A stretch of DNA of 64,000 nucleotides from Lentisphaerota bacterium (GCA_015061915.1 SUVR01000004.1:53093-117092), one strand, 5' to 3'; positions 31,905-52,367 are shown, counted from the first letter of the stretch. The notes: generated from the letters alone by a model not told the origin. Numbers and translations: made by a program.

Positions 31905-35087
<3,183 letters not shown>

Positions 35088-35105: not shown

Positions 35106-35262
35106 GGACGGCAGCCGGCTCCGGCGCGGCAGCCGTGAGTGCCGGAAAAAATCGGTTGCGATTTTTTCCGCACTCACGGGTTCTGCCCGGCAGAACCGGT
35201 CAGCGGGGCGGGTGGCGACCCGCCCGCTGACCGCTGCCGCGCCGGAGTCCGTGCTGCCGTCC
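35106..35262. repeat. GC-rich nested palindromic element (four-way junction), element 1
   Basis: Outer stem 35106-35133/35233-35262 enclosing three contiguous hairpins 35134-35178, 35179-35197 and 35198-35232, paired by hand. Confidence 0.85.
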
Positions 35263-35313
35263 GGTCAAACTTTTTCCTCCAACCAGACTGTATTCAAGAA
35301 AGACCTTTTCCCT

Positions 35314-36453
35314 ATGATTCCCCGTTCCCGTCAGGACCTGATCCGGCTTGAAAATGATTCTCTTGCGCCCTATGCGATCCGTTCGGAGGGTGCAGCTTCG
35401 ACCCGTCTCCATCCAGAGCCGATCCACCCGTTCCGTACGGACTTTCAGCGTGACCGGGACCGGGTTCTGCACAGCCGTGCGTTCCGGCGTCTGGAGTACA
35501 AGACGCAGGTCTTTCTGAGTGGTTCAGGCGACCACCTGCGGAACCGTCTGACCCATACCATTGAGGTGGCAGCCATTGCGAAGACGATTTCCAACGCACT
35601 ATCGCTGAACATCGACCTGACGGAAGCGATCGCCCTGGCGCACGATCTGGGGCATACACCGTTCGGGCACGCCGGTGAGCGGGCGATGGCGGTCATCATG
35701 GCGAACAACGGCGGTTTTGACCACAATCTGCAAGCGCTGCGGGTGATCGATCATCTGGAGATCAAGTATCCTGAATACGATGGGATCAACCTGACCATTG
35801 CGGCACGGCAGGGGCTGATCAAGCACCGGACGCCCGGTATGACTGCGCTGGATGGCATTCTGCTCCCGCCCAAGCCCGGTCTGGAGGCGCAGGTGGCGGA
35901 TCTGGCGGACGACCTGACCTACTACGGGCACGATGTGGATGACGGTCTGGATTCGGGTATTCTCACTCACGAGATGCTGTCCTCTCTGGAAATCTGGCAG
36001 CGTGCCTGTGAATTGGCAAAACAGCACAAATATCTCCCCGGCGATGACCGTTTCCTCCCCTTTGCGGTCCGGTCGCTCATCGACATGATGGTGGGGGATG
36101 CCATCCGTAACTCTGCAAAACAGATCGAAGCGGCGGCACCCGCCTCGCCGGAAGAAGTCATGCAGCTGCCGAAGATGCTGATCTCCTTCAGTCCGGAGTT
36201 CCAGAAGCTGACCGATGATCTGAAAAAATTTCTGTACGAAAATCTCTACTTCGGGCCGGAACTGAGCAAACTGAACGAGCTTTCCATGAGTCGTCTTTCC
36301 TACCTTTTCGATACGTTCTGCGCCCATCCGGAAGAAATGGGATCCTCCGCCCGGAACCGGATCGAAAGCGATGGTCTGACACGGGCGGTGGCAGATCACA
36401 TTGCGGGTATGACGGACAACTTTGCGGTCAGCGAGTATCTGCGTCTGAAATAA
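35314..36453 (+). CDS. dgt: Deoxyguanosinetriphosphate triphosphohydrolase (HD family)
   Basis: FQRDRDRVLHSRAFRRLEYKTQV, RNRLTHT, HDLGHTPFGHAGE and AGMTD motifs. True start MIPRS. Confidence 0.95.
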   Translation: MIPRSRQDLIRLENDSLAPYAIRSEGAASTRLHPEPIHPFRTDFQRDRDRVLHSRAFRRLEYKTQVFLSGSGDHLRNRLTHTIEVAAIAKTISNALSLNIDLTEAIALAHDLGHTPFGHAGERAMAVIMANNGGFDHNLQALRVIDHLEIKYPEYDGINLTIAARQGLIKHRTPGMTALDGILLPPKPGLEAQVADLADDLTYYGHDVDDGLDSGILTHEMLSSLEIWQRACELAKQHKYLPGDDRFLPFAVRSLIDMMVGDAIRNSAKQIEAAAPASPEEVMQLPKMLISFSPEFQKLTDDLKKFLYENLYFGPELSKLNELSMSRLSYLFDTFCAHPEEMGSSARNRIESDGLTRAVADHIAGMTDNFAVSEYLRLK

Positions 36454-36569
36454 ATCAGGCTTGGCGGGTAACCCCGCAGAATTCATCGCTGAACGGTCCG
36501 GCAGCGCCCTTCTTGTTCACGTTCCCGGAGCAGATATCCTCTTTTCGTTCGTTCAACCTGTAGAAGATC

Positions 36570-37316
36570 TTACTTGCGCAGAGCGGCTTTCATCGCTGCA
36601 GCAACATTGCTGGTGATGGCATCCACGCCGTTCGCTTCAAAGTAACGGCAGCGTTCTTCATCGTCGATGGTCCAGACCGCCAGATAGTAACCGCGCTTCT
36701 TCACTTCGGCAAGGAATTCAGGCGTAAGGACATCGTTGCTTCCGCCAACATCCAGACCGTCAGCGCCGATCCGTTCCAGCGTGGAGAAAATGTCATCCCA
36801 GGTATAGCGGGGAGTTCCGTCTTCGTTATTCCGCATATGAGCGAGCCAGAGAGCGGGCACTTCGGGGATGACTTTTTTACATTCCGCCACCATATCCGCC
36901 TGGAAGGAAATCATCACGATCTGTTCAAAGGGGATGGAGGAATTTTCGATCTCTTTGCGCATGGCGGCGACCACTTCCGGATCGTTTGCCTTGACTTCCA
37001 CAAAATATTTACGACCCGGCTTCAGGGTCTTGAGAGAATCGGAAAACAGGGGGATCTTTTCGCCCTTATACGCTTCGTGATGACCGGAAACATCCAGCAG
37101 TTCCAGTTCAACAAAAGGCGTCTCTTCGATCACCCGATCTACACCGGACATCCGTTTTGTGCTGAAATCATGACCGCAGACCAGCAGTTTTTCCGCGGTG
37201 AAATGAATATCGCACTCCATGCCGTCCGTATCTCTTTCGTTGGAAAGGCGGTAGGCTGCGAGTGTGTTTTCAGGGGCGTCGTGGGATTCTCCACGGTGGG
37301 AAATAAAAATGCTCAT
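36570..37316 (-). CDS. Glycerophosphodiester phosphodiesterase family protein
   Basis: SHRG, APENTLAA, ECDIH, VWTID and GVDAITSN motifs. Confidence 0.93.
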   Translation of the reverse strand: MSIFISHRGESHDAPENTLAAYRLSNERDTDGMECDIHFTAEKLLVCGHDFSTKRMSGVDRVIEETPFVELELLDVSGHHEAYKGEKIPLFSDSLKTLKPGRKYFVEVKANDPEVVAAMRKEIENSSIPFEQIVMISFQADMVAECKKVIPEVPALWLAHMRNNEDGTPRYTWDDIFSTLERIGADGLDVGGSNDVLTPEFLAEVKKRGYYLAVWTIDDEERCRYFEANGVDAITSNVAAAMKAALRK

Positions 37317-37529
37317 TGTTCGGCTTCCTTCTGTTATTTGTTCCGTAAAAGTTCACTTTCCTTGCATACTATTACCTACTTTTTCCGTTTTTCAATGTCT
37401 TCTTATAAAAAATAAATCAAAAAAAGTCTGCACGCCCACTTGTTAATTTAAAATTATGGAGTAGGTTACTGTGTGGGGGATTACATTATTGGAAACAGGA
37501 ACAAAAAAAGAAGGGGAACAGGAAAGATT

Positions 37530-40163
37530 ATGAGTGACCAGAACAATATGAATAATGATGACTTCGGGATCAAGCGCCCGAAAGATACGTACACGATCAC
37601 CATCAGCGGCGGCGAACAGCTGAAACCGGTGGATGGCGGCGACAACGAAAGAATTATGGATGTACCCGCCCTGCCCCTGAGCGATGTGGTGGTATTTCCG
37701 TATGCCCTCTCCCCCCTGATGCTGAACGATGACAAATCGGTCCGCACCATCGAATCTGCCGTTTCCAACGAACGGTTCGTGGCGTTCTTTCCGGAAATGC
37801 CGGATGAACCGGCACCGGATCAGGCGGATGGCATCGACTTGAAAGTAAAACCCATTGAACTCAACGGCAGAAAAGTCTCCTCGGTGGGCGTGCTGGTCCG
37901 TATCGTAAAAATGCTCAAGTTCCCGGATGGCACCCTGCGGGTCCTCGTGCGCGGTCTCTCCCGTGTCCAGTTCCTTTCCATTCAGTCCCGTGTTCCCTTT
38001 ACAACGGTCCGGACAGAACGGCTGGAACCGGGCGTTGACAACTCCATTGAGACCATGGCAATGGTCCGGAACGCCATCAAGCAATTTCAGGAGATCATCT
38101 CCTTCTCTCCCAATTTTCCGGAAGAACTGCGGATCGCAGTTTCCAATCTGACCGATAATACCCGGATCGCAGACCTGATCGCCGATACGCTCAATATCTC
38201 CTACCGGGAAAAACTCGCCCTGCTGACGATCAACGATCTGCAGGAACGGCTGCACCTCCTTGCGATCCTGCTGAACCGGGAAGTGGAAGTACTGCGTCTC
38301 GGTTCCGAGATCCAGAGTCAGGTCCACGATGTTATGAGCAAACAGCAGCGGGAATTTTTCCTGCGGGAACAGCTCAAACAGATCAAGGAAGAACTGGGCG
38401 AAGGCAACCGGAACCCCGATATTGTCTCCATCAATGAACGTATGGAAAAAGTGGATCTTCCTCCGAATATCCGCGACCTGATCAACAAGGAAGTGGAACG
38501 GCTGGATATCATCCCGCAAGCATCCGGCGAGTACAATATTGCTTACACCTATATCGACTGGCTCCTTTCCGTTCCGTGGAACGAATACACGGAAGACCGG
38601 CTGGATGTGAACGAAGCTGCCCGGATCCTGGATGAAGACCACTACGGGCTGCAGGATGTGAAAGAACGGATCCTGGAATATCTCTCCGTTCTTCAGCTCA
38701 AAAAGAACCGTAAAGCTCCAATCATCTGTTTTGCAGGTCCTCCGGGCGTGGGAAAAACATCTCTCGGCAAATCCATCGCCAGCGCTATGGGCAGAAAATT
38801 TGTGCGTATCTCGCTGGGCGGGATCAAGGATGAAGCGGAGATCCGCGGACACCGCCGCACCTATATCGGCGCACTTCCCGGCAGAATCATTCAGGGGATG
38901 AAAAAAGCCGGCACCAGCAACCCGGTGTTTATGCTGGACGAACTGGACAAAGTAGGCAATGATTACCGGGGCGATCCGGCTTCCGCCCTGCTGGAAGTAT
39001 TGGACCCCCAGCAGAATTCCTCCTTCAACGATCATTATCTGGAAGTGGACTACGACTTGAGTTCGGTGATGTTCATTGCCACCGCCAATATTGAAGATAC
39101 CATTCCACGCCCCCTGCTGGACCGTATGGAAATGATCCGTCTGCCCGGTTATACCGCCATGGAAAAACACGAGATCGCACGCCGGTATCTGATTCCCCGC
39201 CAGATGAAAGAAAACGGACTGAAAACAGAAGACATCCGGTTCACCCGCAGTGCGTTGGATGAAGTCATCACCTTCTACACCGTGGAAGCTGGCGTCCGCA
39301 ATCTGGAACGGACCTTCGGTACAATTTGCCGGAAACTGGCAAGAAAGATCGTGGAAGGTGCCGTGGAAGCGGGATCCGGCTATGTCGTTACGCCCGCCGT
39401 GGTGCAGGACTTGCTCGGACCCCGGAAGTTCCAGATGGATAAATCGGAAGATCAGCCACAGATCGGTATCGCCACCGGTATGGCATGGACCAGCGTCGGC
39501 GGCTCCACCCTGCCGGTGGAAGCAACGATGATGCCCGGTAAAGGCGATCTCAAACTGACCGGCTCTCTGGGCGATGTGATGAAGGAAAGCGCGATGACCG
39601 CCTTCAGCCTTGTCCGCAGCAGATGCAGCGAACTGGGAATCGATTGCGATGTCTTCGGCAAGTACGATTTCCATATCCACGTGCCGGATGGCGCCACACC
39701 GAAGGATGGTCCCAGTGCCGGGGTCACCCTCACGACTGCCCTGGTCTCTCTGCTGACGAAACGCCCGGTCCGTCCCCATCTCTCCATGACCGGTGAGATC
39801 ACGCTCCGGGGTAAAGTCACGGCGGTCGGCGGCATCAAGGAAAAAGTCATTGCTGCGCTCCGGGCTGGCGTTCGGGACATTATGATGCCCGCAGACAACG
39901 AAAAAGATCTGCACGATGTTCCGGAAGAAGTCAAGAAAGCCGTCAAGTTCCACTTTGCAGATAAGATCGAAGATGTGCTTGCGTTTGCTATGCCGAAAAA
40001 TGTCAAAGCCTGTCCCGCAAACAAGGCCAAGGCGGTAAAAGATGAAATCTACACCTTTGACCTGCCGCAGGACGACGATGCAGAAACACCCGCAAAGCCC
40101 GCCCCGGCAAAGAAAAAACGCACCGCAACACGCAAGAAAAAGAAAACAGAGGAAGAAAAATGA
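37530..40163 (+). CDS. lon: ATP-dependent protease La (Lon)
   Basis: LON N domain, GPPGVGKTS, HRRTYIGALPG and PKDGPSAG motifs. Start taken at MSDQN. Confidence 0.97.
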   Translation: MSDQNNMNNDDFGIKRPKDTYTITISGGEQLKPVDGGDNERIMDVPALPLSDVVVFPYALSPLMLNDDKSVRTIESAVSNERFVAFFPEMPDEPAPDQADGIDLKVKPIELNGRKVSSVGVLVRIVKMLKFPDGTLRVLVRGLSRVQFLSIQSRVPFTTVRTERLEPGVDNSIETMAMVRNAIKQFQEIISFSPNFPEELRIAVSNLTDNTRIADLIADTLNISYREKLALLTINDLQERLHLLAILLNREVEVLRLGSEIQSQVHDVMSKQQREFFLREQLKQIKEELGEGNRNPDIVSINERMEKVDLPPNIRDLINKEVERLDIIPQASGEYNIAYTYIDWLLSVPWNEYTEDRLDVNEAARILDEDHYGLQDVKERILEYLSVLQLKKNRKAPIICFAGPPGVGKTSLGKSIASAMGRKFVRISLGGIKDEAEIRGHRRTYIGALPGRIIQGMKKAGTSNPVFMLDELDKVGNDYRGDPASALLEVLDPQQNSSFNDHYLEVDYDLSSVMFIATANIEDTIPRPLLDRMEMIRLPGYTAMEKHEIARRYLIPRQMKENGLKTEDIRFTRSALDEVITFYTVEAGVRNLERTFGTICRKLARKIVEGAVEAGSGYVVTPAVVQDLLGPRKFQMDKSEDQPQIGIATGMAWTSVGGSTLPVEATMMPGKGDLKLTGSLGDVMKESAMTAFSLVRSRCSELGIDCDVFGKYDFHIHVPDGATPKDGPSAGVTLTTALVSLLTKRPVRPHLSMTGEITLRGKVTAVGGIKEKVIAALRAGVRDIMMPADNEKDLHDVPEEVKKAVKFHFADKIEDVLAFAMPKNVKACPANKAKAVKDEIYTFDLPQDDDAETPAKPAPAKKKRTATRKKKKTEEEK

Positions 40164-40948
40164 AACGATTGCTCATCGCCATTCTGCTGACCGCATTTCT
40201 GGTCCCTGTTCTCCCTGCACAGGAAATGCCGGATTTTTCCAGGATCCCCGCAGAGCAGTTCCTGCAATATACGATCCATCGTTTGAAACCGGATCCGCAA
40301 AAGGAAATCTGGATGAAGATGAACGGCAAGATCCAGCACCGCAGAAAGGGATTCAGCACACTGACTTCGCCCATCCGGTTGGGTGTTCTGTTTATGCCTG
40401 CCCGGGCAATGGGTGTCCTTTCTCTGGATGACGGCGCGGAAAGCTACCGCCTGACTCAGCAGTTCACCGTGCCGCCCACACCCCCCACCTGTATCCCCGC
40501 AGGAAACGGGCAGGATGCGGCAAAAGCAAAGCTGCCGGTATTCGGACTCTCCCCCAACGATCTGATGCTGGGATTTCTCTACCGGAAACCGGTCCGGGAG
40601 GAAGCGCAGACTCATGTTTCCATTTACAACACCCGCGTGTTTGTCATGTTTCTGCCCAAGGGAACGGATGGCGAAAAAGACTTTGATCAGTATGCACGGG
40701 TCTACATCAGTACGGAATACCTGGTCCCTCTCAAGGTCGAATGGTTCAAGGAAGATCCTGTCGGAAAAGATCCGGAACCGTACCGCTCTTTTGAAATCAC
40801 CGCCATCAAAAAAATCAATGGCTATGTCATGGTTTCCAAAATGCGCCTCGATGGTCCGGACTGGCGTACCCGGATCGACTTCTCCCATCTGGATATCGGA
40901 GAAGTGGATGAAAACGGCGCTCCGAAAGATCTTTTCAACCTCAAGTAA
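40160..40948 (+). CDS. Exported protein, outer-membrane lipoprotein-sorting (LolA-like) fold
   Basis: Signal peptide. ARVYISTEYLVPLKVEW and IKKINGYVMVSKM segments typical of LolA-like proteins. Overlaps the lon stop. Confidence 0.6.
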   Translation: MKRLLIAILLTAFLVPVLPAQEMPDFSRIPAEQFLQYTIHRLKPDPQKEIWMKMNGKIQHRRKGFSTLTSPIRLGVLFMPARAMGVLSLDDGAESYRLTQQFTVPPTPPTCIPAGNGQDAAKAKLPVFGLSPNDLMLGFLYRKPVREEAQTHVSIYNTRVFVMFLPKGTDGEKDFDQYARVYISTEYLVPLKVEWFKEDPVGKDPEPYRSFEITAIKKINGYVMVSKMRLDGPDWRTRIDFSHLDIGEVDENGAPKDLFNLK

Positions 40949-40960
40949 AGGAATCACGAT

Positions 40961-41587
40961 ATGACCCGGTGCAGTATCCGGACAATTTTGCAAAAACGCA
41001 ATCGGCAGAGCGGACAGGCGATCTCCGAACTGGCGGTCTGCCTCATCGGTCTGCTGGTGGTGCTGCTCGGATTTCTCCTGCTCTCCACGCTCTCGCAGGA
41101 AGGTGTCACAAATGTGATCGCCGCCAGACAGGATGCCGATAAAAACGCCCGGAACGGTCAGAGCAGCGTCGGCAGCAGCAGTACACTGGAAAATATTTCT
41201 CACTGGGACTACGGTCCGAGAGGCGTGCCGTTCAACCGGGACGATACCCCCGTAAAAGCAACAAACAACAGCGGCAGTGTTTTTTTCGGACAACTGACCG
41301 ACAATGGAGGAAAATTCGACTTCAAGACCGCCGGCAACGATTCGTGGCTGCCGGAATACTACAACCCGTTGAAAAAATTACAGAAAGATGATATCCTGCT
41401 GGATGCCGCCAATCTGACCGTCGGATCCTCTACCGAAAAGGATCCCCTCGGGAAGCGCGGCTTGGAATCACTCAAAAACGCAGCAAGAAATATCCTGGGC
41501 GTCCGGGCAGATTTTGAAGTGACGGATTATGTATTTATGCCGGAAAAGGTAACCGTCCCCCTCCCGGAAGAAGCCACCGGAAAGTAA
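40961..41587 (+). CDS. TadE/Flp pseudopilin-like protein
   Basis: Basic leader then G|QAISE plus a hydrophobic helix (prepilin cleavage motif with Glu+5), followed by AAR. Confidence 0.65.
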   Translation: MTRCSIRTILQKRNRQSGQAISELAVCLIGLLVVLLGFLLLSTLSQEGVTNVIAARQDADKNARNGQSSVGSSSTLENISHWDYGPRGVPFNRDDTPVKATNNSGSVFFGQLTDNGGKFDFKTAGNDSWLPEYYNPLKKLQKDDILLDAANLTVGSSTEKDPLGKRGLESLKNAARNILGVRADFEVTDYVFMPEKVTVPLPEEATGK

Positions 41588-41622
41588 GCAGAATTTTGAA
41601 CAGGAAAGAAAGGATTACAAAT

Positions 41623-42117
41623 ATGAATCGGTTGACAGACCCCGCAAGCAAGATCATGACGCTGGCAGATGCGGTGGAGTGGCGCGAAAAAATGCGCATC
41701 GCCGGAAAAAGAGTCTCTCTCACAAACGGATGCTTTGACCTTTTGCACCGGGGACACGCCGAATATCTCAAAGCTGCCGCAGAACTGGCGGATGCACTGG
41801 TGGTCCTCATCAATTCCGATGAGTCCGTCCGGGAACTGAAAGGTCCCACCCGCCCCGTCAACTGCGAATATGACCGGGCGTACCTCCTCGGATGCTTTGC
41901 TTTCATCGATGCAGTGGTCGTCTTCAACGGAAAACGCTGCACCAAAGAACTGGATGCCCTCGCACCGGATGCGTATGCAAAAGGCGGCGATTACACCATC
42001 GAAACATTGGATCCGGAGGAACGGGAAGCTCTCCTCAATGCCGGAACGGAGATCTCCTTTATCCCCTTCGTTCCCGACCACTCAACGACAAGGCTGATCG
42101 AAAAAGCAAAAGGCTGA
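41623..42117 (+). CDS. Cytidylyltransferase-family D-glycero-manno-heptose-1-phosphate adenylyltransferase (RfaE2/HldC)
   Basis: TNGCFDLLHRGH, NSDESVRELKGPTRP, KGGDY and STT motifs. Confidence 0.92.
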   Translation: MNRLTDPASKIMTLADAVEWREKMRIAGKRVSLTNGCFDLLHRGHAEYLKAAAELADALVVLINSDESVRELKGPTRPVNCEYDRAYLLGCFAFIDAVVVFNGKRCTKELDALAPDAYAKGGDYTIETLDPEEREALLNAGTEISFIPFVPDHSTTRLIEKAKG

Positions 42118-42136
42118 TCCGGTCGTTTCATTTTTT

Positions 42137-42183
42137 GCGGTGTAAAACCTCCCGACCCGGTTTTGCACCGCCTTCTTTTTTTT
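42137..42183 (+). terminator. Intrinsic terminator 1 after the lon operon
   Basis: GCGGTGTAAAACC / GGTTTTGCACCGC followed by a T-run. Confidence 0.75.
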
Positions 42184-42191
42184 GATTTCCG

Positions 42192-42238
42192 AGCGAAACT
42201 GCAAAGCAAATCTGTCTTCCTGCAGTTTCGCTTTTTTT
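42192..42238 (+). terminator. Intrinsic terminator 2 (tandem)
   Basis: AGCGAAACTGCA / TGCAGTTTCGCT followed by a T-run. Confidence 0.7.
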
Positions 42239-42362
42239 GCGTATTTCAAAAGTAAAATCCTTTTTTTCCACTTTTTTCCTTTCATTTTCAGCCGTCTGCG
42301 GCTCCGTCAAAGAAAATCCATAAAAAAAGTCAAAAAAAATTGAAAAATTTTTCAAAAAAGGC

Positions 42363-42418
42363 TTGAAACGCGCGATATTTAGGGTAAATTAGTGGAGGTT
42401 AGGTGAAATTAGGTGAAT
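42363..42418 (+). promoter_or_regulatory. dcw promoter with 10-bp-period direct repeats (probable MraZ operator)
   Basis: TTGAAA-N16-TAAATT overlapped by TTAGGGTAAA TTAGTGGAGG TTAGGTGAAA TTAGGTGAAT (42379-42418). Confidence 0.7.
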
Positions 42419-42440
42419 TCCGCAAATCGAAAGGTGCAAT

Positions 42441-44310: not shown

Positions 44311-44311
44311 T

Positions 44312-46177
44312 ATGCCCAATAAGGAATTAAAAACAGTTTTTTTCCGTTTGCTGTTTTTCTTTCTTCTGGTCATTGCGTGCTTTATTTTTGCCGGTATGCA
44401 GATGTACCGGATCCAAATCACGCGCCACGATGAACTGCTCCGGGCGGCACAGGCTCAATATCGCAGCACAATGACAGAGCAGACCAGCATGGGCGAGATC
44501 TACGACTGCAACGGCAATCGTCTGGTCAGCAATAAATTTGTCAAGACCATTATTTTCGACCCCAGTATCGTTCCTTCTGCGGATGACCGGGAAAAGATCG
44601 CACATCTTCTTTCCCATCTCATGCCGGAACTGGACTATAAAGAACTGCTCCGGAAAATGAACAGCGATGTTTTGTCCGGGAAAAAAGTGCAGTACGTTGT
44701 CCTTGCCAGGGATGTGGATTTTGAAAAAGCAACGGAGATCGAAAAAAACATCATCGGTATGCATATGCGGGGGCTTACGTTCAAACGCGTGAACCGCCGT
44801 TTCTATCCCAAAGGAAGGATGCTTGCCAATGTGCTGGGGATCAGTTACATCAGCAACGAAGAAACCACCGGTGTTTCCGGATTGGAAGGTACATTCAAGA
44901 AGGAACTCAAGGGGGAAGACGGAAAAATCTCCTATTATCAGGGCGGGGATGGCTCGATCATCCGTGGAACGGTGAACAAACACATCAGCGGTCAAAGCGG
45001 AAAAAATGTCTACCTGACGATCAATGAACCGATCCAGGCAATTTTGGAAGAGGAAATCGACCAGCTTTATGCAGATACCGGCTCCAAAGCAGTCTATGCA
45101 GCCATTGCAGATCCTTATACCGGTGACATCCTTGCCATAGCTCAGCGTCCGACATTCGATCCGAATGACCGCCGTACAATGAAAGACAAACTTGCCAGTA
45201 CCAATCTGATCTCCGCCAATCCCTACGAGCCGGGGTCTGTTATGAAACCTTTTGTTGTTTCCATGGCGCTGGATGACGGCGTGATCAAACGGGATACCAT
45301 CATCCGGACCGGGTTCGATAAAACATGGTTCTATGCGGGGCGTCCTTTACGGGACACCCATATTGTCGGCAATGCCACTCCCCTGCAGGTCATTCAGCAC
45401 TCCAGCAACATCGGCACTGCCATGATCGCAGTTATGCTCGGCGAAAAACGGGTGTATGAGATCCTTTCCTCTTTCGGATTCGGCAGAAAGACCGGGCTGC
45501 CCATCACGCCGGAAAGTTCCGGCAGATTGAATCCGGTCAAAAAATGGGACTCTCTGACCGTCACCCGAATCTGCATCGGACACGCCATCATGGTCACGCC
45601 GCTGCAGCTGCTCCGGGCATATTGTATGCTGGCAAACGGCGGTTATCCGGTCCAGCTGCGTATGATTGATGCGATTGAAGATGAAAAGAACGGCAAAGTG
45701 AAACAGCCTTATCTCATCAGTACGGAATCTGTTTTCAAAAATCCCGGCACCCACCGGGAAGTGGTCCGTATGCTGAAAACGGTCACAAAACCGGGTGGCA
45801 CCTCTTCACAGTCTGCGGTCCCCGGCTTTGAAGTTGCCGGAAAGACCGGAACGGCAAACAAGATCGAAAACGGCAGATATGTCAAAGGAAAATATTTCTC
45901 CTCGTTCTGCGGCTTCATTCCCGCCGATAATCCGAAGTTTGTGATCGTGATCACCTGCGATGAACCCACAGGCAAAAACCTTTACGGCGGTTCCACATCC
46001 GGTCCTGCATTCGCACGGATCGCAAAACGCACGCTGGACTACATGGATGTCCAGCCCGATATGACGCTGGAAGAATGGGAAAAAATGATCTCTGAGGCAA
46101 AGAAGCAGAGTCACAAAGATATGATGAAGCGGGAAAATGACCGGCGCGCATCTCTCGGAATGGCGCCGCTGCAGTAA
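44312..46177 (+). CDS. ftsI: Class B penicillin-binding protein (FtsI/PBP3)
   Basis: EPGSVMKP (SxxK), SSN and KTGT motifs; dcw context. Confidence 0.92.
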   Translation: MPNKELKTVFFRLLFFFLLVIACFIFAGMQMYRIQITRHDELLRAAQAQYRSTMTEQTSMGEIYDCNGNRLVSNKFVKTIIFDPSIVPSADDREKIAHLLSHLMPELDYKELLRKMNSDVLSGKKVQYVVLARDVDFEKATEIEKNIIGMHMRGLTFKRVNRRFYPKGRMLANVLGISYISNEETTGVSGLEGTFKKELKGEDGKISYYQGGDGSIIRGTVNKHISGQSGKNVYLTINEPIQAILEEEIDQLYADTGSKAVYAAIADPYTGDILAIAQRPTFDPNDRRTMKDKLASTNLISANPYEPGSVMKPFVVSMALDDGVIKRDTIIRTGFDKTWFYAGRPLRDTHIVGNATPLQVIQHSSNIGTAMIAVMLGEKRVYEILSSFGFGRKTGLPITPESSGRLNPVKKWDSLTVTRICIGHAIMVTPLQLLRAYCMLANGGYPVQLRMIDAIEDEKNGKVKQPYLISTESVFKNPGTHREVVRMLKTVTKPGGTSSQSAVPGFEVAGKTGTANKIENGRYVKGKYFSSFCGFIPADNPKFVIVITCDEPTGKNLYGGSTSGPAFARIAKRTLDYMDVQPDMTLEEWEKMISEAKKQSHKDMMKRENDRRASLGMAPLQ

Positions 46178-46181
46178 AAAA

Positions 46182-47510
46182 TCACTGTCCGTCTTTCATC
46201 TTGCGCTGTTTCTCCCGGCGCAATTTGTTCCAATAGTCCAGACGCCGCTGGATCTCCCGTTCAAAGCCCCGTTCCACCGGCTGATAGAACGTTTTGCGCC
46301 CCATTCCCTCCGGAAAATAATCCTGTCCGGAGAAACCGTCTTCGGTATCGGGATCGTACTGATACCCCTTGTTGTATCCCAATTCCTTCATCAGCTTGGT
46401 AGGAGCGTTGAGAATGTGCATCGGCGGCGTCAGGGAGCCGGTCTGCTTCGCTTCGGCAAGCGCCTTTGGCCAAGCCTTGTAAACACTGGTTGATTTAGGT
46501 GCAGTCCCCAGATAGACCACCAGTTCCGCAATGGCAAGATCCCCTTCCGGCGATCCCAGCCGTTCGTAGGCATCCCACGCCGAAATGGCAAACTGGAGGG
46601 CATTCGGATCTGCCAGACTTACATCTTCCATCGCAAACCGGGTCAGACGCCGCAGCAGGTAGAGAGGATCCTCTCCGCCATCGATCATGCGTGCCGCCCA
46701 GTAAAGCGCCGCATCCGGGTCGGAGCCGCGCAGGGACTTATGCAGCGCACTGATCAGGTTGTAATGTCCTTCACGATCCTTGTCGTATTGAGGTGCCCGC
46801 TGCTGCACGATCTTCATCAGTCCGGCAGAATCCAGCATTTCATCTTCTTTGGTCAGATCAAAAACGGTCTCAATAAGATTGATAAAATATCTGCCGTCGC
46901 CGTCCGCCAGCTGCAGGAGCGTGGCGCGTGCTTCATCGGTCAGTGACAGCTTGCGACCGCTTTCCGCCTCTGCACGGAGAACGATCTTTTCAAGCGCCGT
47001 TTTATCCAGATGATTCAGCACAAAGACCTTACACCGGGAAAGCAGAGCGCTGTTCAGTTCAAACGAGGGATTTTCTGTAGTCGCACCGACAAGCACCACG
47101 GTCCCGTTTTCTACATAAGGCAGAAAACCATCCTGCTGCGCCCGGTTGAAACGGTGGATCTCATCCACAAAGAGAAGCGTTCCCTCCCCTGCAAGACGGC
47201 GCCGTTTGGCATCGTCAAAGGCTTTCCGCAGTTCAGCGATGCCGGAAAAAACAGCGGAAATGGCAACAAAGTGCATATTGGTATGCTGCGCCATGATCCG
47301 GGCGCAAGTGGTCTTGCCGCATCCGGGAGGTCCCCAGAGGATGAAGCTGGAAAGTTTGTTGCTTTCGATCATCCGCCGCAAGGGTCCGTCCGGTCCCAGC
47401 AGATGATCCTGCCCAACGATGTCATCCAGACTTTTCGGGCGCAGACGATCCGCCAGCGGACGCTGGATATTGCTCGCAAAAAGGGAATCGGTCTCTTCCT
47501 CAAAGCTCAT
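46182..47510 (-). CDS. rarA: Replication-associated recombination protein A
   Basis: PLADRLRP, WGPPGCGKTT, DEIHRFNRAQQD and ISALHKSLRGSD motifs. Confidence 0.97.
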   Translation of the reverse strand: MSFEEETDSLFASNIQRPLADRLRPKSLDDIVGQDHLLGPDGPLRRMIESNKLSSFILWGPPGCGKTTCARIMAQHTNMHFVAISAVFSGIAELRKAFDDAKRRRLAGEGTLLFVDEIHRFNRAQQDGFLPYVENGTVVLVGATTENPSFELNSALLSRCKVFVLNHLDKTALEKIVLRAEAESGRKLSLTDEARATLLQLADGDGRYFINLIETVFDLTKEDEMLDSAGLMKIVQQRAPQYDKDREGHYNLISALHKSLRGSDPDAALYWAARMIDGGEDPLYLLRRLTRFAMEDVSLADPNALQFAISAWDAYERLGSPEGDLAIAELVVYLGTAPKSTSVYKAWPKALAEAKQTGSLTPPMHILNAPTKLMKELGYNKGYQYDPDTEDGFSGQDYFPEGMGRKTFYQPVERGFEREIQRRLDYWNKLRREKQRKMKDGQ

Positions 47511-48091
47511 AACACGCCTTTGGTGGAAGGAACGCCCTTGACCCGGGGATCAATGCTGACCGCCTCGGAAAGCGCCCGGGCAAAGCCCTTGAAGATGGAT
47601 TCAAAGATGTGGTGCGTTTCGCCCGCCGCCAGCATCTTGATGTGCAGATTCATGCCGCCTTTCACGGAGAGAGCGGTGAAAAATTCCTTGAAGAGAGCCG
47701 TATCCATATCCTTGATGAAGGGAGCGGGGACGGGGACATCGTAAACGAGGTACGGTCTGCCGGAGAGGTCCAGCGCCACGAGGGAAAGGGTCTCATCCAT
47801 GGGCAGCAGGAAGTTTCCGTAGCGACGGATCCCGCACTTGTCGCCGAGCGCCTGAATAATGGCTTCGCCGAGAGCAAGCCCCATGTCTTCCATCGTGTGA
47901 TGGCAGTCCACATCCAGATCGCCCTTTGCCTCCACGGTCAGGTCAAAATTGCCGTGCTTGGCAAAAAGGGTCAGCATATGATCCATGAATCCGATCCCGG
48001 TGGAGATCGTGCTGTTGCCTTCGCCGTCAAGATCGATCGTTACGAGGATGTCGGTTTCTTTCGTGGTACGTTTTACACTGCCTGTTCTCAT
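47507..48091 (-). CDS. hisB: Imidazoleglycerol-phosphate dehydratase
   Basis: RTTKET, DCHHTMED, PMDE, HHIFE and PSTKG motifs. Confidence 0.97.
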   Translation of the reverse strand: MRTGSVKRTTKETDILVTIDLDGEGNSTISTGIGFMDHMLTLFAKHGNFDLTVEAKGDLDVDCHHTMEDMGLALGEAIIQALGDKCGIRRYGNFLLPMDETLSLVALDLSGRPYLVYDVPVPAPFIKDMDTALFKEFFTALSVKGGMNLHIKMLAAGETHHIFESIFKGFARALSEAVSIDPRVKGVPSTKGVL

Positions 48092-48134
48092 GTGGAGACT
48101 CCTGTTGATTGTATGTTATCGTTATATTTTCTGT

Positions 48135-49238
48135 TCAGATGATCCGTTTTTCCGTTTCCGCATCAAAGAGATGAGCCCGTTTCCCGTACAGCGCCAGATC
48201 CAGTTCATCCCCTACGGCGACCTGCCGGTGGGCATCCACCCGGGCGATACAGGACGCCCCGGTGCCTGCATCCAGATAGAGATAGGTCTCTGCGCCCATC
48301 GGCTCCCGCACTTCCACTTTTGCGTGGAGCCGGGCGACCGATCCGGATTTTTCCGCCTGGTCCGACCCGATGTCTTCCGGACGGATGCCATAAACAACCG
48401 TTTTTCCGGCATAATCCTTTATCGTCTCTGTCCAATCCGGCGGCAGGGGAATACAAATATTTCCTGCCCGGAAAGAGAATCCGCCATCGTGTTCCTGCAA
48501 TTCTCCGCGGATCAAATTCATCGGCGGCGTACCGATAAAACCGGCAACAAACAGATTCGCCGGATTGTCATAAATATTCATTGGCGTATCCACCTGCTGG
48601 ATCACGCCGTCCTTCATAACGCAGATCCGGTCCCCCATGGTCATAGCTTCCGCCTGATCGTGGGTCACATAGATCATCGTTGCTTCCAGCCGGGTATGCA
48701 GCTTGCTGATCTCCGCCCGCATCTGAACGCGCATTTTTGCATCCAGATTGGAGAGCGGTTCATCAAACAGAAAGACCGCCGGCTTCCGGACAATGGCTCT
48801 ACCCACAGCCACCCGCTGACGCTGTCCGCCGGAAAGTGCTTTCGGTTTCCGGTCAAGATACCCGTTCAAACCGAGGATCTCCGCCGTCTCACGGACCCGT
48901 CTCTCTATATCGGCTTTGGGGATCTTCCGCAGTTTCAGCCCGAACGCCAGATTTTCATACACGGTCATGTGGGGGTACAGCGCATAATTCTGAAACACCA
49001 TGGCAATATCCCGATCCTTCGGGGGAACATTGTTCACCACCCGGTCCCCGATCCGGATCGTGCCGTCACTGACATCCTCCAGACCGGCGATCATCCGCAG
49101 CATCGTGGATTTTCCGCAGCCGGAGGGTCCCACCAAAACCATAAATTCACGGTCATTCACGGTCAGAGAAAGCCGGTTGACGGCAAGTACGCCACCCTCG
49201 TAGACTTTACTGACTTCGCTGACCGTTACGTTTGCCAT
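48135..49238 (-). CDS. Carbohydrate ABC transporter ATP-binding protein (MalK/MsmX/UgpC family)
   Basis: GPSGCGKST, VFQNYALYPH, LSGGQRQR, YVTHDQ motifs and a TOBE domain. Confidence 0.95.
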   Translation of the reverse strand: MANVTVSEVSKVYEGGVLAVNRLSLTVNDREFMVLVGPSGCGKSTMLRMIAGLEDVSDGTIRIGDRVVNNVPPKDRDIAMVFQNYALYPHMTVYENLAFGLKLRKIPKADIERRVRETAEILGLNGYLDRKPKALSGGQRQRVAVGRAIVRKPAVFLFDEPLSNLDAKMRVQMRAEISKLHTRLEATMIYVTHDQAEAMTMGDRICVMKDGVIQQVDTPMNIYDNPANLFVAGFIGTPPMNLIRGELQEHDGGFSFRAGNICIPLPPDWTETIKDYAGKTVVYGIRPEDIGSDQAEKSGSVARLHAKVEVREPMGAETYLYLDAGTGASCIARVDAHRQVAVGDELDLALYGKRAHLFDAETEKRII

Positions 49239-49255
49239 TTCCGTTCGATTTCCGT

Positions 49256-50428
49256 TCAGTTCTGCTGCTGTTTCCAATAGGGCGAGATCTCACGCAGACG
49301 TGCGATCACCGGCGGCAGCACTTCCAGAACACGGTCTACTTCCGCTTCCGTGTTGTAACGGGAGAAGCTGAAACGGATGGAGCCGTGTGCGGCGGTGTAA
49401 GGAACCCCCATGGCACGCAGTACGTGGGACGGTTCCAGGCTGCCGGTTGTGCAGGCACTGCCGCTGCTGGCGCAGATGTTGTGCATATCCAGCAGCATCA
49501 GGATGGATTCGCCTTCGATGTATTCAAAAGAAATGTTTGCCGTGTTGGGCAAACGGTGTTCCACATCGCCATTGATCCGGACCGAAGGAATGGAGGCAAG
49601 AACGCCCTGCTCCAGTTTATCCCGCAACGCACGGACCGCTGTGTTTTCGTGACCGATGTTCGCCAGCGCCAGTTCCGCCGCCTTGCCGAGACCAACAATG
49701 CTCGCCAGGTTCTCCGTTCCCGCACGGCGGCCATGCTCCTGATGTCCTCCGATGATGTACGGATGGAACCGGACACCGCGTTTTACATACAGCGCACCGA
49801 TCCCTTTCGGAGCGTGGAACTTGTGACCGGAAAGGCTCAACATATCGATGGGCAGTTCTGCCAGATTCATCGGAACTTTTCCAACCGCCTGGACCGCGTC
49901 CGTATGGAAGAGCGCGCCGTTTTTCCGGGCAAGCTCGCCCAGTTCGATCACGGGCTGGATGTTGCCGGTCTCGTTGTTCGCCCACATCACAGACACAACT
50001 GCTGTTTCGGAGTCGATCATCTCGCGCGCACGGTCCATATCCAGTCTGCCTCTGGCATCCACGGGAATGATGGAGACTTTATAGCCGTTCCGCTCCAGTT
50101 CTTTGCCCAGATTCAGCACAGCAGGATGTTCGACTTTGGAAATGACAACTTTTCTGCGTTTGGGGCAGATGGAAAGCGCCGAACGGATCGCCGTGGTATC
50201 GCTTTCCGTACCGCAGGAGGTAAAGATGATCTCGGAGTTCTGCGCACCGATCAAAGCTCCCAGTTGCGCACGGGCTTCTTCCACCTTCGCAGCAAGCTGT
50301 CCGCCGAAACGGTGAATACTGGAGGGGTTGCCGTAAAACTCCGTGAGATACGGCGTCATCGCCTCGAAAACTTCCGGCGCCACACAGGTGGTCGCGTTGT
50401 TGTCCAGGTAGATAATATTGCTGCTCAT
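49256..50428 (-). CDS. nifS: Cysteine desulfurase NifS
   Basis: YLDNNATT, SGHKFHAPKG and SSGSACT motifs; follows nifU. Confidence 0.95.
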   Translation of the reverse strand: MSSNIIYLDNNATTCVAPEVFEAMTPYLTEFYGNPSSIHRFGGQLAAKVEEARAQLGALIGAQNSEIIFTSCGTESDTTAIRSALSICPKRRKVVISKVEHPAVLNLGKELERNGYKVSIIPVDARGRLDMDRAREMIDSETAVVSVMWANNETGNIQPVIELGELARKNGALFHTDAVQAVGKVPMNLAELPIDMLSLSGHKFHAPKGIGALYVKRGVRFHPYIIGGHQEHGRRAGTENLASIVGLGKAAELALANIGHENTAVRALRDKLEQGVLASIPSVRINGDVEHRLPNTANISFEYIEGESILMLLDMHNICASSGSACTTGSLEPSHVLRAMGVPYTAAHGSIRFSFSRYNTEAEVDRVLEVLPPVIARLREISPYWKQQQN

Positions 50429-50429
50429 C

Positions 50430-51290
50430 TTACTTGACTTCCTCTACTTGCAGGTCGGCACAGACCAATTCCTGAAGTTTGCCTTCCACCAGTTTTTTCA
50501 GCGTGAGGGAGGCATTGGGACAGGCCGCGCACATACCTTTGAGGCGCACATGGACCACTTTTCCTTCCAGATCAATCAGCTCAATGCTGCCGCCATCCCG
50601 TTCCAATGCGGGCTTGATCTCTTTGTCAATGACTTCCTGAACGCGGAGGATCTTTTTGACAAGAGAAAGAGAATCGAAGGAATCTTCCTGCACGGGAGCG
50701 GGTTCTGCCCACATTTCATCCAGGATCTCCTGAATGGAATCCAGACACATACCGCAGGCACCGCCCGCCTTGGTATATTCCGTGATTTCTTCCACGGTAT
50801 GCAGATTATTGATCTTGGCAACCTTGCGGATCTTGGCATCCGTGATCCCGAAACAGTGGCAGATGATTCTGCCTTCGTGGTCGGTTTCATCCACTTCCAG
50901 TTCTTCGTAAGGTTCGCCGTGTTTCTTCTTGTAGTCCACGATCGCCGCCTGAAGAGCCTCCATTCCCATCACAGAACAGTGCATTTTTTCTTCCGGCAGT
51001 TCGCCGAGGGCATCGGCAATGTTCCGGTTGGTGATTTTGGCAGCTTCATCCAGTGTCAGCCCTTTGACCAGTTCGGTCAGAACGGAACTGGAAGCGATGG
51101 CGCTGGCGCAGCCGAATGTCTGAAATTTGATGTCACTGATCCGTTTTTCATCATCCAGACGGATCGTGATCTTGAGTGCGTCACCGCAGGTCATGTTACC
51201 GACTTCTGCTTCTGCATCGGGATTTTCAATGGTACCCACATTCCGGGGGTTCAGGAAGTGGTCCATCACTTTATCTGTATAGTTCCACAT
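50430..51290 (-). CDS. nifU: Fe-S cluster assembly protein NifU (three-domain)
   Basis: IscU domain (CGD, FGC, HC), BFD-like CxC...CxxC and Nfu CAAC domain. Confidence 0.96.
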   Translation of the reverse strand: MWNYTDKVMDHFLNPRNVGTIENPDAEAEVGNMTCGDALKITIRLDDEKRISDIKFQTFGCASAIASSSVLTELVKGLTLDEAAKITNRNIADALGELPEEKMHCSVMGMEALQAAIVDYKKKHGEPYEELEVDETDHEGRIICHCFGITDAKIRKVAKINNLHTVEEITEYTKAGGACGMCLDSIQEILDEMWAEPAPVQEDSFDSLSLVKKILRVQEVIDKEIKPALERDGGSIELIDLEGKVVHVRLKGMCAACPNASLTLKKLVEGKLQELVCADLQVEEVK

Positions 51291-51510
51291 GGAAAAATCT
51301 CCTTTCCTTGCGTATGTGTTAAAAATAAGTTCAATAGATAATATATCACGCGCGTGCCGATTTTACAAGGGAGTTGACCGGAGAAAGAACAAGTTTGTTC
51401 GGGAAAAAATTGAAGAAAAACTCCAACTTTCAGGATGCTGCGGTGTCTATTGCCTCTGCCGGGGCATGGAGGCAAGCCCGTACCGGAAACAAGAAAAAAG
51501 GAGGTTCACT

Positions 51511-52137
51511 ATGATGAAAGTACTGTCAAAAACCCTGTTTACTGCAGCCGCGATCCTGTTCTGCGCCGGATTCACCGGCTGTAAATGTTGTGCCGATGAA
51601 AAAAAAGCGTGCGACCCCAAAGATGATGCGCAGTGCAACACCTGCAACTGCCCCGTCCTGCTGGTGATCGGAGAAGATGAAGAACAGATCGGCGACTGCA
51701 CCGTATGCACCGTGTGGTGTCAGGAATACACTCCCTGCATGAATGCAGCTGCCGCCTGCCCCGCCATCGCAAAGCATACCTTGAAAGATGCACCTCTGTG
51801 CGCAAAATGCAAAGATGCCATTATGGCAAACGCTCCCCAGCGGAAAGACTGCGCTGTGTGCGGCAAAGAAGCAAAGCCCTGTGCAGCCTGTACGGATAAA
51901 CTCCATAACAGCAAGGTCAAAGATCTGATGAGCGCCGAGTCTATGAAGGCAAATATGAACTGCAAAGAATGTAAGAAAACCACCGAAGCCGCCGCAAAAG
52001 CAAAAGCGGAAAAAATGAAAAAAGCCGATAATGCAGATGACGACGATGATGTGGTCGTGGTGGAAGAAGTCGATGCCGTGATCGTTCCGGTCCCGGCTCC
52101 GGCAGACGACACAAAGAAAACCGAAGAAAAAAAGTAA
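51511..52137 (+). CDS. Cysteine-rich lipoprotein-like hypothetical protein (208 aa)
   Basis: AGGAGG RBS; lipobox-like FTGC; 21 Cys including six CxxC; acidic/Lys-rich tail; followed by a terminator. Confidence 0.8.
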   Translation: MMKVLSKTLFTAAAILFCAGFTGCKCCADEKKACDPKDDAQCNTCNCPVLLVIGEDEEQIGDCTVCTVWCQEYTPCMNAAAACPAIAKHTLKDAPLCAKCKDAIMANAPQRKDCAVCGKEAKPCAACTDKLHNSKVKDLMSAESMKANMNCKECKKTTEAAAKAKAEKMKKADNADDDDDVVVVEEVDAVIVPVPAPADDTKKTEEKK

Positions 52138-52180
52138 CTCGAAATAACACCGGTCAATCCGGTAGCTGATCGTGTCCGGT

Positions 52181-52210
52181 ACGGGGGAACTGAAAAGCCC
52201 CCGTTTTTTT
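52181..52210 (+). terminator. Intrinsic terminator
   Basis: ACGGGGG / CCCCCGT followed by a T-run. Confidence 0.75.
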
Positions 52211-52216
52211 GTTTAT

Positions 52217-52367
52217 GCCTCTTCCACCAACGGCGGACGGGGCGGCACGGCGCGCGGTTAAACCGCGCTGCCGCCGTATGCGCAGTTTTCCTGCGCGCAT
52301 ACGGCGGCGGTTCTGCGCAGAGCGCAGAACCTGCCGTGCCGCCCGCTCCGCCGTTGGTGGAAGAGGC
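52217..52367. repeat. GC-rich nested palindromic element (four-way junction), element 2
   Basis: 21-bp perfect terminal IR (52217-52237/52347-52367) extended by about 13 bp, enclosing hairpins 52252-52268, 52270-52308 and 52309-52331. Confidence 0.88.

Follow-up and report, generated by a model that had tools for sequence, protein, structure and literature searches.

A family of three-hairpin palindromic elements at gene ends in a gut Lentisphaeria genome, probably REP/MITE-like mobile repeats

The 2.49 Mb source genome (G000) contains 68 GC-rich elements which fold into an outer stem closing three hairpins. The elements are probably small, non-coding, genus-restricted mobile palindromes of the REP/MITE type that carry terminators, at about 70 copies in a 2.5 Mb genome. 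Two of them are found in the window (the whole 64,000-nt stretch of DNA that was analysed); these two loci are members of the family and not an isolated pair.

Short palindromic repeats, REPs and MITEs among them, influence transcription, mRNA stability and genome rearrangement in bacteria. To our knowledge, the known families are recognised by sequence. The family described here is recognisable mainly by shape: it has one invariant four-arm plan and a 10-nt conserved core, and its sequence is otherwise free. Sequence-based repeat finders will therefore miss such families. Four congeners (G001, G002, G003 and G004) were compared with G000; G003 is the closest, at 91% identity.

The two window elements

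According to a preliminary description, both window loci consist of an outer stem closing exactly three hairpins, and both lie downstream of a plus-strand gene. The folds have this layout (Table 1), and the upstream genes stop at 35087 and 52137. Element 1 has an MFE of -144.8 kcal/mol, against a mean of -80.5 for 200 shuffles (z -14.9); element 2 has an MFE of -142.4 kcal/mol, against a shuffle mean of -73.9 (z -15.7). Such folds do not arise often by chance, as no shuffle was as low for either element (0 of 200 for element 1). The outer stems contain 28 and 33 pairs, respectively. The junction contains no unpaired bases in element 1 and two in element 2.

The two loci share the arm GGTTCTGC-loop-GCAGAACC, located as described in arm 2 of element 1 and arm 3 of element 2. 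They also have a related GC-rich core adjoining the junction, GGCGCGGCAGC in element 1 and GGGGCGGCACGGC in element 2; the core-pattern match G000:C10:88215-88335 corresponds to window positions 35123-35243, within element 1. Outside the shared arm and core, the two sequences cannot be aligned. They are nevertheless less unrelated than first thought, since the outer-stem core is conserved and a limited set of hairpin words is in use. Neither this core nor the genome-wide recurrence of the layout had been noticed in the preliminary description.

Neither window element has a hairpin followed by a T-run in either direction. Element 1 is a T-run-poor copy in a tandem gene context; its orthologue in G003 retains the fold, and hairpin 2 is identical. 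The ordinary terminator-shaped hairpin just before element 2 was read directly from the sequence; it was missed by the consensus scan because the loop limit of the scan is 8 and the loop here is 10 nt. In G004, the exchanger orthologue has an unrelated three-hairpin element at the same upstream position as element 2. The RNA data are assembled contigs from three RNA-library runs (together with one DNA run), which carry no strand, level or 3'-end information; one RNA contig of high depth ends at 52137, but a contig end is no evidence of termination.

Table 1. Coordinates of the two window elements, their parts and the neighbouring genes and signals (window positions)
Feature	Position	Strand	Details	Basis
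Family 2 glycoside hydrolase (beta-galactosidase-like), upstream of element 1	31938..35087	+		Pfam
Element 1	35106..35262		157-nt nested palindrome; outer stem and three hairpins	
Element 1 outer-stem 5' arm	35106..35133		core GGCGCGGCAGC at 35123-35133	parse
Element 1 hairpin 1	35134..35178		45 nt; internal A6...T6 sub-hairpin	fold
Element 1 hairpin 2	35179..35197		GGTTCTGC-CCG-GCAGAACC; arm common to element 2	
Element 1 hairpin 3	35198..35232		35 nt	fold
Element 1 outer-stem 3' arm	35233..35262		core complement GCCGCGCC at 35236-35243	
HD-domain phosphohydrolase (dGTPase-like), downstream of element 1	35314..36453	+		Pfam
282-aa protein without Pfam family, upstream of element 2	51289..52137	+		Pfam search
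Ordinary terminator-shaped hairpin, just before element 2	52181..52214	+	ACGGGGG, 10-nt loop, CCCCCGT, T7GTTT	read from sequence
Element 2	52217..52367		151-nt nested palindrome; outer stem and three hairpins, without A/T runs	
Element 2 outer-stem 5' arm	52217..52251		locus-specific 22-nt extension, then core-like GGGGCGGCACGGC at 52239-52251	
Element 2 hairpin 1	52252..52268		17 nt	fold
Element 2 hairpin 2	52270..52308		39 nt	fold
Element 2 hairpin 3	52309..52331		GGTTCTGCGC-AGA-GCGCAGAACC; arm common to element 1	
Element 2 outer-stem 3' arm	52332..52367			fold
Promoter-like site, between element 2 and the next gene	52423..52451	+	TTGATT-17-TATATT; 9/12 consensus matches	consensus match only
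Na+/H+ exchanger fused to PTS EIIA-2 domain, downstream of element 2	52514..54715	+		Pfam

Architecture, shared sequence and position across the genome

Exactly three branches are found in 69 of the 77 strongly folding inverted-repeat loci in the genome. Of these three-branched loci, 68 have folding energies under -0.65 kcal/mol per nt and 85% of their bases in pairs; they are 103-189 nt long and have a GC content of 67%. The outer stem varies from 9 to 33 bp, and the junction is tight (median 2 unpaired bases; 0-3 in 51 of the 68 copies). The same plan is found in G004, where all 12 such loci in 400 kb are three-branched. Nested insertions were considered as a source of larger or odd folds among the scanned loci and rejected; these are ordinary three-hairpin elements beside neighbouring hairpins.

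The preliminary view that the family is defined mainly by architecture is borne out: the layout recurs about 70 times with little shared sequence. The outer stems carry a common 10-12 bp core, about RGGGCGCGGC, which is nearly free of T: at positions -13 to -5, this base is found in only 0-6 of the 136 arms. The word GGCGCGGC occurs 144 times in the genome, 27 of them within elements, whose share of the genome is 0.4%. Hairpins also share words. The first 8 nt are common to 118 hairpin pairs (expected 1.3; maximum 6 in 1000 column shuffles), and 13 words recur, GGTTCTGC among them.

Full-length similarity between copies was rejected, since all-against-all blastn gives matches of only 15-36 nt, and the copies are too dissimilar for MAFFT alignment. 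A scan for the arm shared by the window elements, GGTTCTGC-N3-10-GCAGAACC, finds only the two known copies in 2.49 Mb; this arm is therefore not a family marker. Arms as captured genomic fragments were also rejected: outside the scanned elements there are 19 matches, of which the strong ones belong to additional, degraded elements and the remainder are only 18-23 nt. The preliminary description recognised no named family with this layout, and no Rfam family reaches its gathering score in the window. Below threshold, element 1 scores at best 23.6 bits (threshold 72.5); the best score of element 2, 33.8 bits (threshold 142), is to a plant miRNA hairpin model matched on both strands.

Elements settle almost only behind stop codons, mainly between convergent genes. 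There are 41 convergent, 26 tandem and 1 divergent copies, compared with 157 convergent, 448 tandem and 212 divergent spacers genome-wide, all counts being based on a simple gene caller that over-extends starts. Elements thus occupy a quarter of convergent junctions (41/157). At least one gene 3' end is faced by 67 of the 68 copies, and the median distance to the stop codon is 22 nt. In convergent copies, a hairpin and then a T-run are met from 72 of 82 incoming directions. Tandem copies have this arrangement in the sense direction in 14 of 26 cases and in the antisense direction in 15; it is absent from both directions in 10 of the 26, both window elements included. Overall, a quarter to a third of copies lack a T-run. 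Elements probably set the ends of many transcripts in this uncultured gut lineage. The link to gene 3' ends, convergent pairs and T-runs had been missed in the preliminary description.

Duplication, turnover and host range

The unit has been copied to new intergenic sites, and the limits of the copied unit are the terminal repeats. In G004, C5:9770-9900 and C5:19145-19276 are nearly identical, with a handful of differences in the alignment; in G000, the copies at C2:243435 and C2:246914 are 87% identical over 158 nt. The flanks are unrelated in both pairs, and in both the homology starts and ends at terminal inverted repeats of the GGCGCGGCACC / GGTGCCGCGCC type. In these two pairs, the only two available, none of the four ends shows a direct repeat that would indicate a target-site duplication. 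The members of the G000 pair are 3.3 kb apart and could have arisen by local recombination. The copies at C6:58739 and C4:87854 have only hairpin 3 and a terminus in common, i.e. they are mosaic. Only two clearly related copy pairs are found; most copies have only 15-36 nt modules in common, and spread is therefore old or rare.

Elements are also gained and lost between closely related species. This was checked at orthologous loci: an entire element of 150-190 nt may separate two genes in one genome where congeners have no element and a gap of about 15-20 nt. For element 1, such a gap is found in G004 and G002; the G001 spacer contains a simple hairpin. Elements are retained in none of 10 syntenic comparisons when the congener has about 75% identity (70-80%). 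In G003, elements are kept in four of five syntenic comparisons, with the fold preserved; at the fifth, the spacer (374 nt) is entirely different, and its flanks are 95-97% identical.

The core pattern GGCGCGGC-N90-120-GCCGCGCC gives 11 hits in G000, 20 in G004, 5 in G002, 3 in G003 and none in G001; the reversed control gives none in any of the five. Of the 251 genomes scanned in the order, the remainder mostly have counts at or below the reversed control. Judged by this pattern, the family appears to be confined, within its order, to one genus of gut Lentisphaeria. Four other genera or families, each sampled over about 200 kb, yielded no elements. A 24-base terminus-plus-hairpin pattern has 11 hits in 185,579 species genomes. 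Ten of these are in high-GC Actinomycetes and other unrelated taxa and are presumed to be due to chance; the eleventh is in a Lentisphaeria MAG and folds as a three-hairpin element.

Structural constraint and origin of the elements

Stems are conserved while loops change. In four G000/G003 orthologues the MFE is retained, whereas an equal number of random changes costs 20-47 kcal/mol; simulated sequences were as stable in 0, 0, 1 and 0 of 300 cases. This supports the earlier claim of selection on structure. Between the two genomes, 23 of 248 pairs are changed, three of them compensated on both sides, compared with 27 of 82 unpaired bases. Uncompensated stem changes (12 pair-breaking, 4 wobble) exceed the three double changes; fast arm-to-arm copying is therefore not demonstrated. 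G-U pairs are rare (161 of 8449, or 1.9%) and equal between strands (25 sense and 28 antisense in the 26 tandem copies). Folding energy does not differ between sense and antisense either, the sense strand being more stable in 15 of the 26.

No transposase or other mobilising gene linked to the elements was found. The G000 match to PF01797 (Y1 transposase) covers profile positions 2-60 only, a 59-residue fragment in a 94-aa open frame; G003 has no PF01797 match. G001 has an intact Y1 gene yet no core-pattern hits. G004 has an intact IS200-like gene with AT-rich flanks and no elements beside it. The suggested link to RAYTs and REPs is consequently unsupported. No longer element with the same termini was found in G000, where six inverted core pairs lie 0.3-6 kb apart; these have arms of 13-15 bp, none is at an element, and their number is at a chance-like level.

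The preliminary description offered three options: a non-autonomous mobile element, a Holliday-junction-like single-stranded DNA structure and an ncRNA class. The first fits best: copies sit at unrelated loci, their homology stops at the terminal inverted repeats, and congeners differ in which loci carry an element. In each copy, the terminal repeats with their core (about RGGGCGCGGC and its complement) pair as the inner part of the outer stem, and the three hairpins between them are drawn from a fast-changing, partly shared vocabulary. Most copies may act as two back-to-back intrinsic terminators: hairpin 1 and its T-run would serve the left gene, and hairpin 3 with the complementary A-run would serve the right gene. 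This would explain why elements are tolerated or favoured at gene ends. T-run-free copies, such as both window elements, are likely to be passengers beside ordinary terminators or inside operon spacers. Constraint probably acts on DNA, or equally on both strands, through purifying selection or arm-to-arm templated repair. The locus-specific extension of the outer stem may derive from inverted copying of the flank or from insertion into an older palindrome.

It is unlikely that the elements are instead non-mobile, elaborated intrinsic terminators of a lineage-specific design that arose in place, with like words due to convergent selection for the same RNA polymerase or termination-factor contacts. 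Location directly behind stop codons, the strong over-representation between convergent genes and virtual absence between divergent ones, the T-runs of convergent copies and the lack of long similarity among most copies are all consistent with that origin. However, it does not account for near-identical copies at unrelated loci whose homology ends at the terminal repeats, nor for whole elements present or absent between closely spaced genes; furthermore, some tandem copies (10/26) have no T-run at all, tandem antisense is as terminator-like as sense (15 vs 14), and element 2 directly follows an ordinary terminator hairpin. It is very unlikely that the elements are structured RNAs or RNA modules of 3' UTRs, with the four-way junction formed and acting in the transcript. 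Such a module might block 3' exonucleases, bind a protein at the conserved GGGCGCGGC word that would be carried by both convergent mRNAs or mark read-through RNA for a double-strand-specific RNase. Elements do lie within transcribed 3' regions, stems stay conserved between G000 and G003 as loops change, three of the stem changes being double and compensatory, and an RNA-library contig covers element 1 with G003-type variants (although this may be DNA carry-over). The rare, strand-equal G-U pairs weaken the ncRNA option, as do the similar fold energies of the two strands and the lack of any Rfam family near gathering score. In addition, a transcript ended at an internal T-run lacks the 3' arm, so the outer stem cannot form.

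The strand-symmetric, Watson-Crick-only constraint would suit a folded-DNA substrate, either single-stranded or an extruded cruciform, whose four-way junction is cut or joined by a putative recombinase, resolvase or HUH-type nuclease and whose architecture is the recognition signal. The invariant arm number, the tight junction, free arm sequence beside a conserved core adjoining the junction and duplicate copies bounded at the stem core point the same way. No candidate enzyme was found, the sole one tested being the Y1 HUH transposase (a fragment in G000 and unlinked in G004); this explanation, which overlaps the preferred mobile-element reading and is not cleanly exclusive of it, is held to be very unlikely. 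A further, also very unlikely, reading is that the four-arm plan and tight junction are themselves the signal: the elements would be self-templating palindromes, with a DNA junction read by an undescribed structure-specific enzyme and arms rewritten by templated copying within the element. This would explain near-complete hairpin turnover with Watson-Crick-perfect pairing and an arm number fixed at three; if true, it would represent a new way for DNA to be mobile or maintained. The mechanism that keeps exactly three perfectly paired hairpins despite sequence turnover is the question posed by the family.

Among known systems, the REP, BIME and REPIN sequences of Enterobacteria and Pseudomonas are mobilised by RAYT Y1 transposases. 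The REP unit is a single 20-40 bp hairpin with a GTAG or CGTC tag, and copies are alike in sequence. Both groups comprise abundant GC-rich extragenic palindromes at gene 3' ends and in convergent spacers (here, 67 of 68 extragenic copies face a gene 3' end); both are restricted to particular lineages and vary in presence among relatives, and in both paired inverted conserved units build a larger hairpin. Unlike REPs, the elements here have an unpaired-looking 10-12 nt G-rich core enclosing three hairpins of almost free sequence, are not accompanied by a RAYT gene and do not carry a GTAG tag; the last is explained by the near absence of T from the arm core.

MITEs and the Correia elements of Neisseria are non-autonomous, have terminal inverted repeats, copy into intergenic regions and may carry promoter or terminator signals. 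MITE copies are normally similar along their whole length, with target-site duplications and a parent insertion sequence. The elements described here are likewise bounded by terminal inverted repeats (in the two duplicate pairs) and have a core conserved across copies. In contrast to MITEs, only the termini and some hairpin words are common to copies, no target duplication is seen in the two duplicate pairs, and no parent element is found in G000.

An ordinary bidirectional terminator consists of a single hairpin with an A-run on one side and a T-run on the other. Convergent copies mostly resemble it: each strand has a GC-rich hairpin with a T-run after it, and both stop codons are about 20 nt away or less. 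The elements differ in having two separate hairpins facing across a third and a 9-33 bp outer stem clamp, which is unformable in a terminated transcript, and in the copies without a T-run. The literature on REPs, stem-loop repeat families and terminators, as far as it was accessible to the search, describes no closed three-hairpin repeat; absence from print is not claimed.

Elements of this kind break short-read assemblies, which matters for the quality of metagenome-assembled genomes; in the closest relative, assembly contigs end at elements.

Fold and genome-wide census

Elements 1 and 2, two intergenic stretches each downstream of a + strand gene, had been put forward as members of an undescribed structured family with one arm in common. 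Both folds are borne out: with RNA parameters, each is a single long outer stem around three hairpins and no more, and the junction has 0 unpaired bases in element 1 and 2 in element 2. The region of element 1 (35100-35270) has an MFE of -144.8 kcal/mol against a mean of -80.5 for 200 dinucleotide shuffles, none of which is as stable (z -14.9); the region of element 2 (52210-52375) has -142.4 against -73.9 (z -15.7). The common arm is also confirmed; it does not occur a third time in the whole 2.49 Mb assembly (31 contigs, 52% GC). Searched against Rfam, the window has no hit that reaches a family's gathering score; a relaxed threshold returns weak, generic hairpin matches only.

Features of the two element loci (window positions)
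Feature	Position	Remark
Element 1	35106-35262	
Element 1 core	35123-35133	GGCGCGGCAGC
Common arm in element 1	35179-35197	GGTTCTGC-loop-GCAGAACC
Terminator-shaped hairpin	52181-52214	Ordinary; directly before element 2; read from sequence
Element 2	52217-52367	
Element 2 core	52239-52251	GGGGCGGCACGGC
Common arm in element 2	52309-52331	GGTTCTGC-loop-GCAGAACC
Promoter-like site	52423-52451	After element 2

The search for additional copies revealed a large family. In the genome holding the window (G000), inverted repeats spanning 80-300 nt were each folded, and 77 loci have an MFE below -0.5 kcal/mol per nt. An outer stem closes exactly three branches at 69 of these; three loci have two branches, one has five with a three-branch element inside, and four are simple long hairpins. 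Two of the simple hairpins, on other contigs (C9:164549-164714 and C26:21123-21290), are near-identical, 166-168 nt long, with perfect terminal arms of 29-30 bp; they are a repeat distinct from the three-hairpin family. Sixty-eight three-branch loci lie below -0.65 kcal/mol per nt, with lengths of 103-189 nt (median 141), a mean GC content of 67% and an outer stem of 9-33 pairs; 85% of their bases are paired, and 51/68 have at most three unpaired junction bases. At least three further copies are found inside larger or degraded folds.

In the assembly of the closest congener (G003), contigs break inside or at all three elements of the stretch matching the 20 kb at G000 C25:256000-275900. It seems that these palindromes disrupt assembly from short reads, so draft genomes probably understate the number of copies.

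Shared sequence, duplication and range

The sequences of elements 1 and 2 had been described as non-alignable. This holds at full length, as all-against-all blastn gives no full-length similarity among copies and only 15-36 nt matches; the copies are nevertheless related through the outer-stem core and hairpin words. Outer arms aligned at the junction share a G-rich core that is approximately RGGGCGCGGC and also takes the forms GGCGGCGGTCC and GGCGCAGAC; positions -13 to -5 are nearly free of T (0-6 of 136 arms). Elements make up 0.4% of the genome and hold 27 of the 144 genomic occurrences of the word GGCGCGGC. Hairpin pairs with identical first 8 nt number 118, against 1.3 expected. Thirteen hairpin words recur, including GCCGGAGC (11 times, always in an arm adjoining the outer stem), GCTTTTTT (10 times, in every case within the middle arm) and GGTTCTGC, the word of the common arm (twice). 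A 13-bp inverted pair of a GGCG-type core word, 1073 bp apart at 56155-57227 (C10:109247-110319), is probably a chance occurrence within coding DNA.

Several copies are duplicates of the whole unit. In the congener G004, two oppositely oriented copies separated by 9.4 kb are near-identical across ~136 nt and have unrelated flanks; homology runs from GGCGCGGCACC to just past GGTGCCGCGCC. In G000, the copy at C2:243435 has an 87% identical counterpart in the neighbouring convergent spacer, at a distance of 3.3 kb, again with unrelated flanks; the outer-stem extensions of the two are unlike each other, and each is self-complementary. The copies at C6:58739 and C4:87854 have nothing in common beyond hairpin 3, the A-run and the terminus, which indicates that copies are mosaics. 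No target-site duplication is visible at the ends of these copies.

Turnover between species is quick. Element 1 is present in G003 (~91% identity) and absent from the three other congeners (~70-80%); the flanking genes are ~15-20 nt apart in G004 and G002, and a simple 35-nt hairpin takes the place of the element in G001. At the locus of element 2, the orthologous exchanger gene of G004 is preceded at the corresponding position by a three-hairpin element whose sequence is unrelated; other genera have plain terminators there. Where both flanks could be located on one sequence piece of the relative, G003 retains 4/5 elements and the more distant congeners 0/10; at the fifth G003 locus, flanks of 95-97% identity enclose an entirely different 374-nt spacer.

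The family is restricted to the genus. G004 has 12 elements in 400 kb, all 12 three-branched; none were found in the ~200 kb scanned per taxon for two further genera of the family and two further families. The core pattern GGCGCGGC-N90-120-GCCGCGCC was counted alongside its reversed form, as a control, across 251 genomes from the order. Counts for pattern and control are 11/0 in G000, 20/0 in G004, 5/0 in G002, 3/0 in G003 and 0/0 in G001; in nearly all remaining genomes the pattern does not exceed the control. Two genomes of another family of the order, G229 (4/1) and G160 (2/0), are slightly above control by pattern match only. Among 185,579 species genomes, a terminus-plus-hairpin pattern matches one Lentisphaeria MAG, in which the three-hairpin fold was confirmed, and ten more from unrelated high-GC taxa by pattern only. 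Conserved termini, duplicates, the genome-wide census and genus restriction together point to a repeat family.

Position at gene ends and terminator features

Gene context was taken from a crude self-trained gene caller, in which stops are reliable and starts over-extended. Convergent spacers hold 41 elements (157 such spacers exceed 50 nt genome-wide), tandem spacers 26 (of 448) and divergent spacers one doubtful element (of 212). On the side facing a gene end, the median distance between element and stop codon is 22 nt. The usual inner order is hairpin 1, T-run, GC stem, A-run and hairpin 3, the T-run pairing with the A-run to close the middle arm at its base. By sequence, hairpin 1 and the T-run together have the shape of an intrinsic terminator on the + strand, as do hairpin 3 and the A-run on the - strand. 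A hairpin with a T-run is met from 72/82 incoming transcription directions in convergent copies; among tandem copies it is present in 14/26 sense and 15/26 antisense, and 10/26, including elements 1 and 2, have none.

Element 1 is flanked by genes for a beta-galactosidase-like protein and an HD phosphohydrolase. A 1104-aa open frame at 31863-35177 (-) shadows the entire beta-galactosidase-like gene and extends into element 1; it is probably no gene, since the codon-usage caller picks the + strand gene, which carries Pfam domains. The gene at 51289-52137 (+) encodes a 282-aa protein without a Pfam family; in two bovine-gut RNA libraries its contig depth is 227 and 122 versus single digits nearby, contig depth being a poor measure of expression.

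Conserved pairing, related systems and mechanism

Four orthologous pairs between G000 and G003 show 6-21 differences per element with MFE almost unchanged. Random changes in equal number cost 20-47 kcal/mol; out of 300 simulations, 0, 0, 1 and 0 match the stability of the real element. Changes affect 23/248 base pairs (3 compensated double changes, 4 wobble, 12 broken, 4 gapped) and 27/82 unpaired bases. The retained MFE and the lower rate of change in pairs show that the fold is under constraint. G-U pairs are rare (161 of the 8449 pairs predicted); among the tandem copies (26), for which a sense strand is defined, the sense fold has 25 and the antisense fold 28, and energy favours neither fold. 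Such rarity and symmetry are predicted by a DNA-level or strand-symmetric constraint and not by a one-strand RNA gene. Furthermore, a transcript ended at the internal T-run does not contain the 3' arm, so the outer stem cannot form in it; this speaks against reading the clamp as an RNA feature of messages terminated there.

In the way they work, the elements resemble both REP/BIME/REPIN sequences and terminator-carrying MITEs; however, they lack the GTAG tag and RAYT that define the former; of the features that define the latter, no target duplication is visible at the ends of the duplicate copies and no parent element was found in G000. Most copies also resemble bidirectional terminators, but possess a third arm and a clamp in addition, and T-runs are missing from a sizeable minority. 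No description of such a family was found in a literature search of titles and partial abstracts. The combination of an unvarying shape and free sequence is unusual.

Mobilisation by a RAYT or other Y1 transposase, a gene that the preliminary description had proposed to look for, is unsupported. The sole Y1 (IS200/RAYT-type) match in G000 is a fragment (C1:73958-74134; profile positions 2-60; 94-aa open frame), and an intact IS200-like gene in G004 is unlinked to elements. In G000, no longer element sharing the same termini turned up. The family is duplicative, bounded by terminal inverted repeats and located at gene 3' ends; it turns over quickly between species, and its pairing is conserved. 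Most copies probably act as two facing terminators; T-run-free copies such as elements 1 and 2 would then be passengers. Pairing may be maintained through selection or through arm-to-arm templated repair, an idea that draws on template switching. The locus-specific outer extension might grow via inverted copying of the flank, or might reflect insertion into an older palindrome; it is short in young G004 copies and reaches up to 22 extra pairs in element 2.
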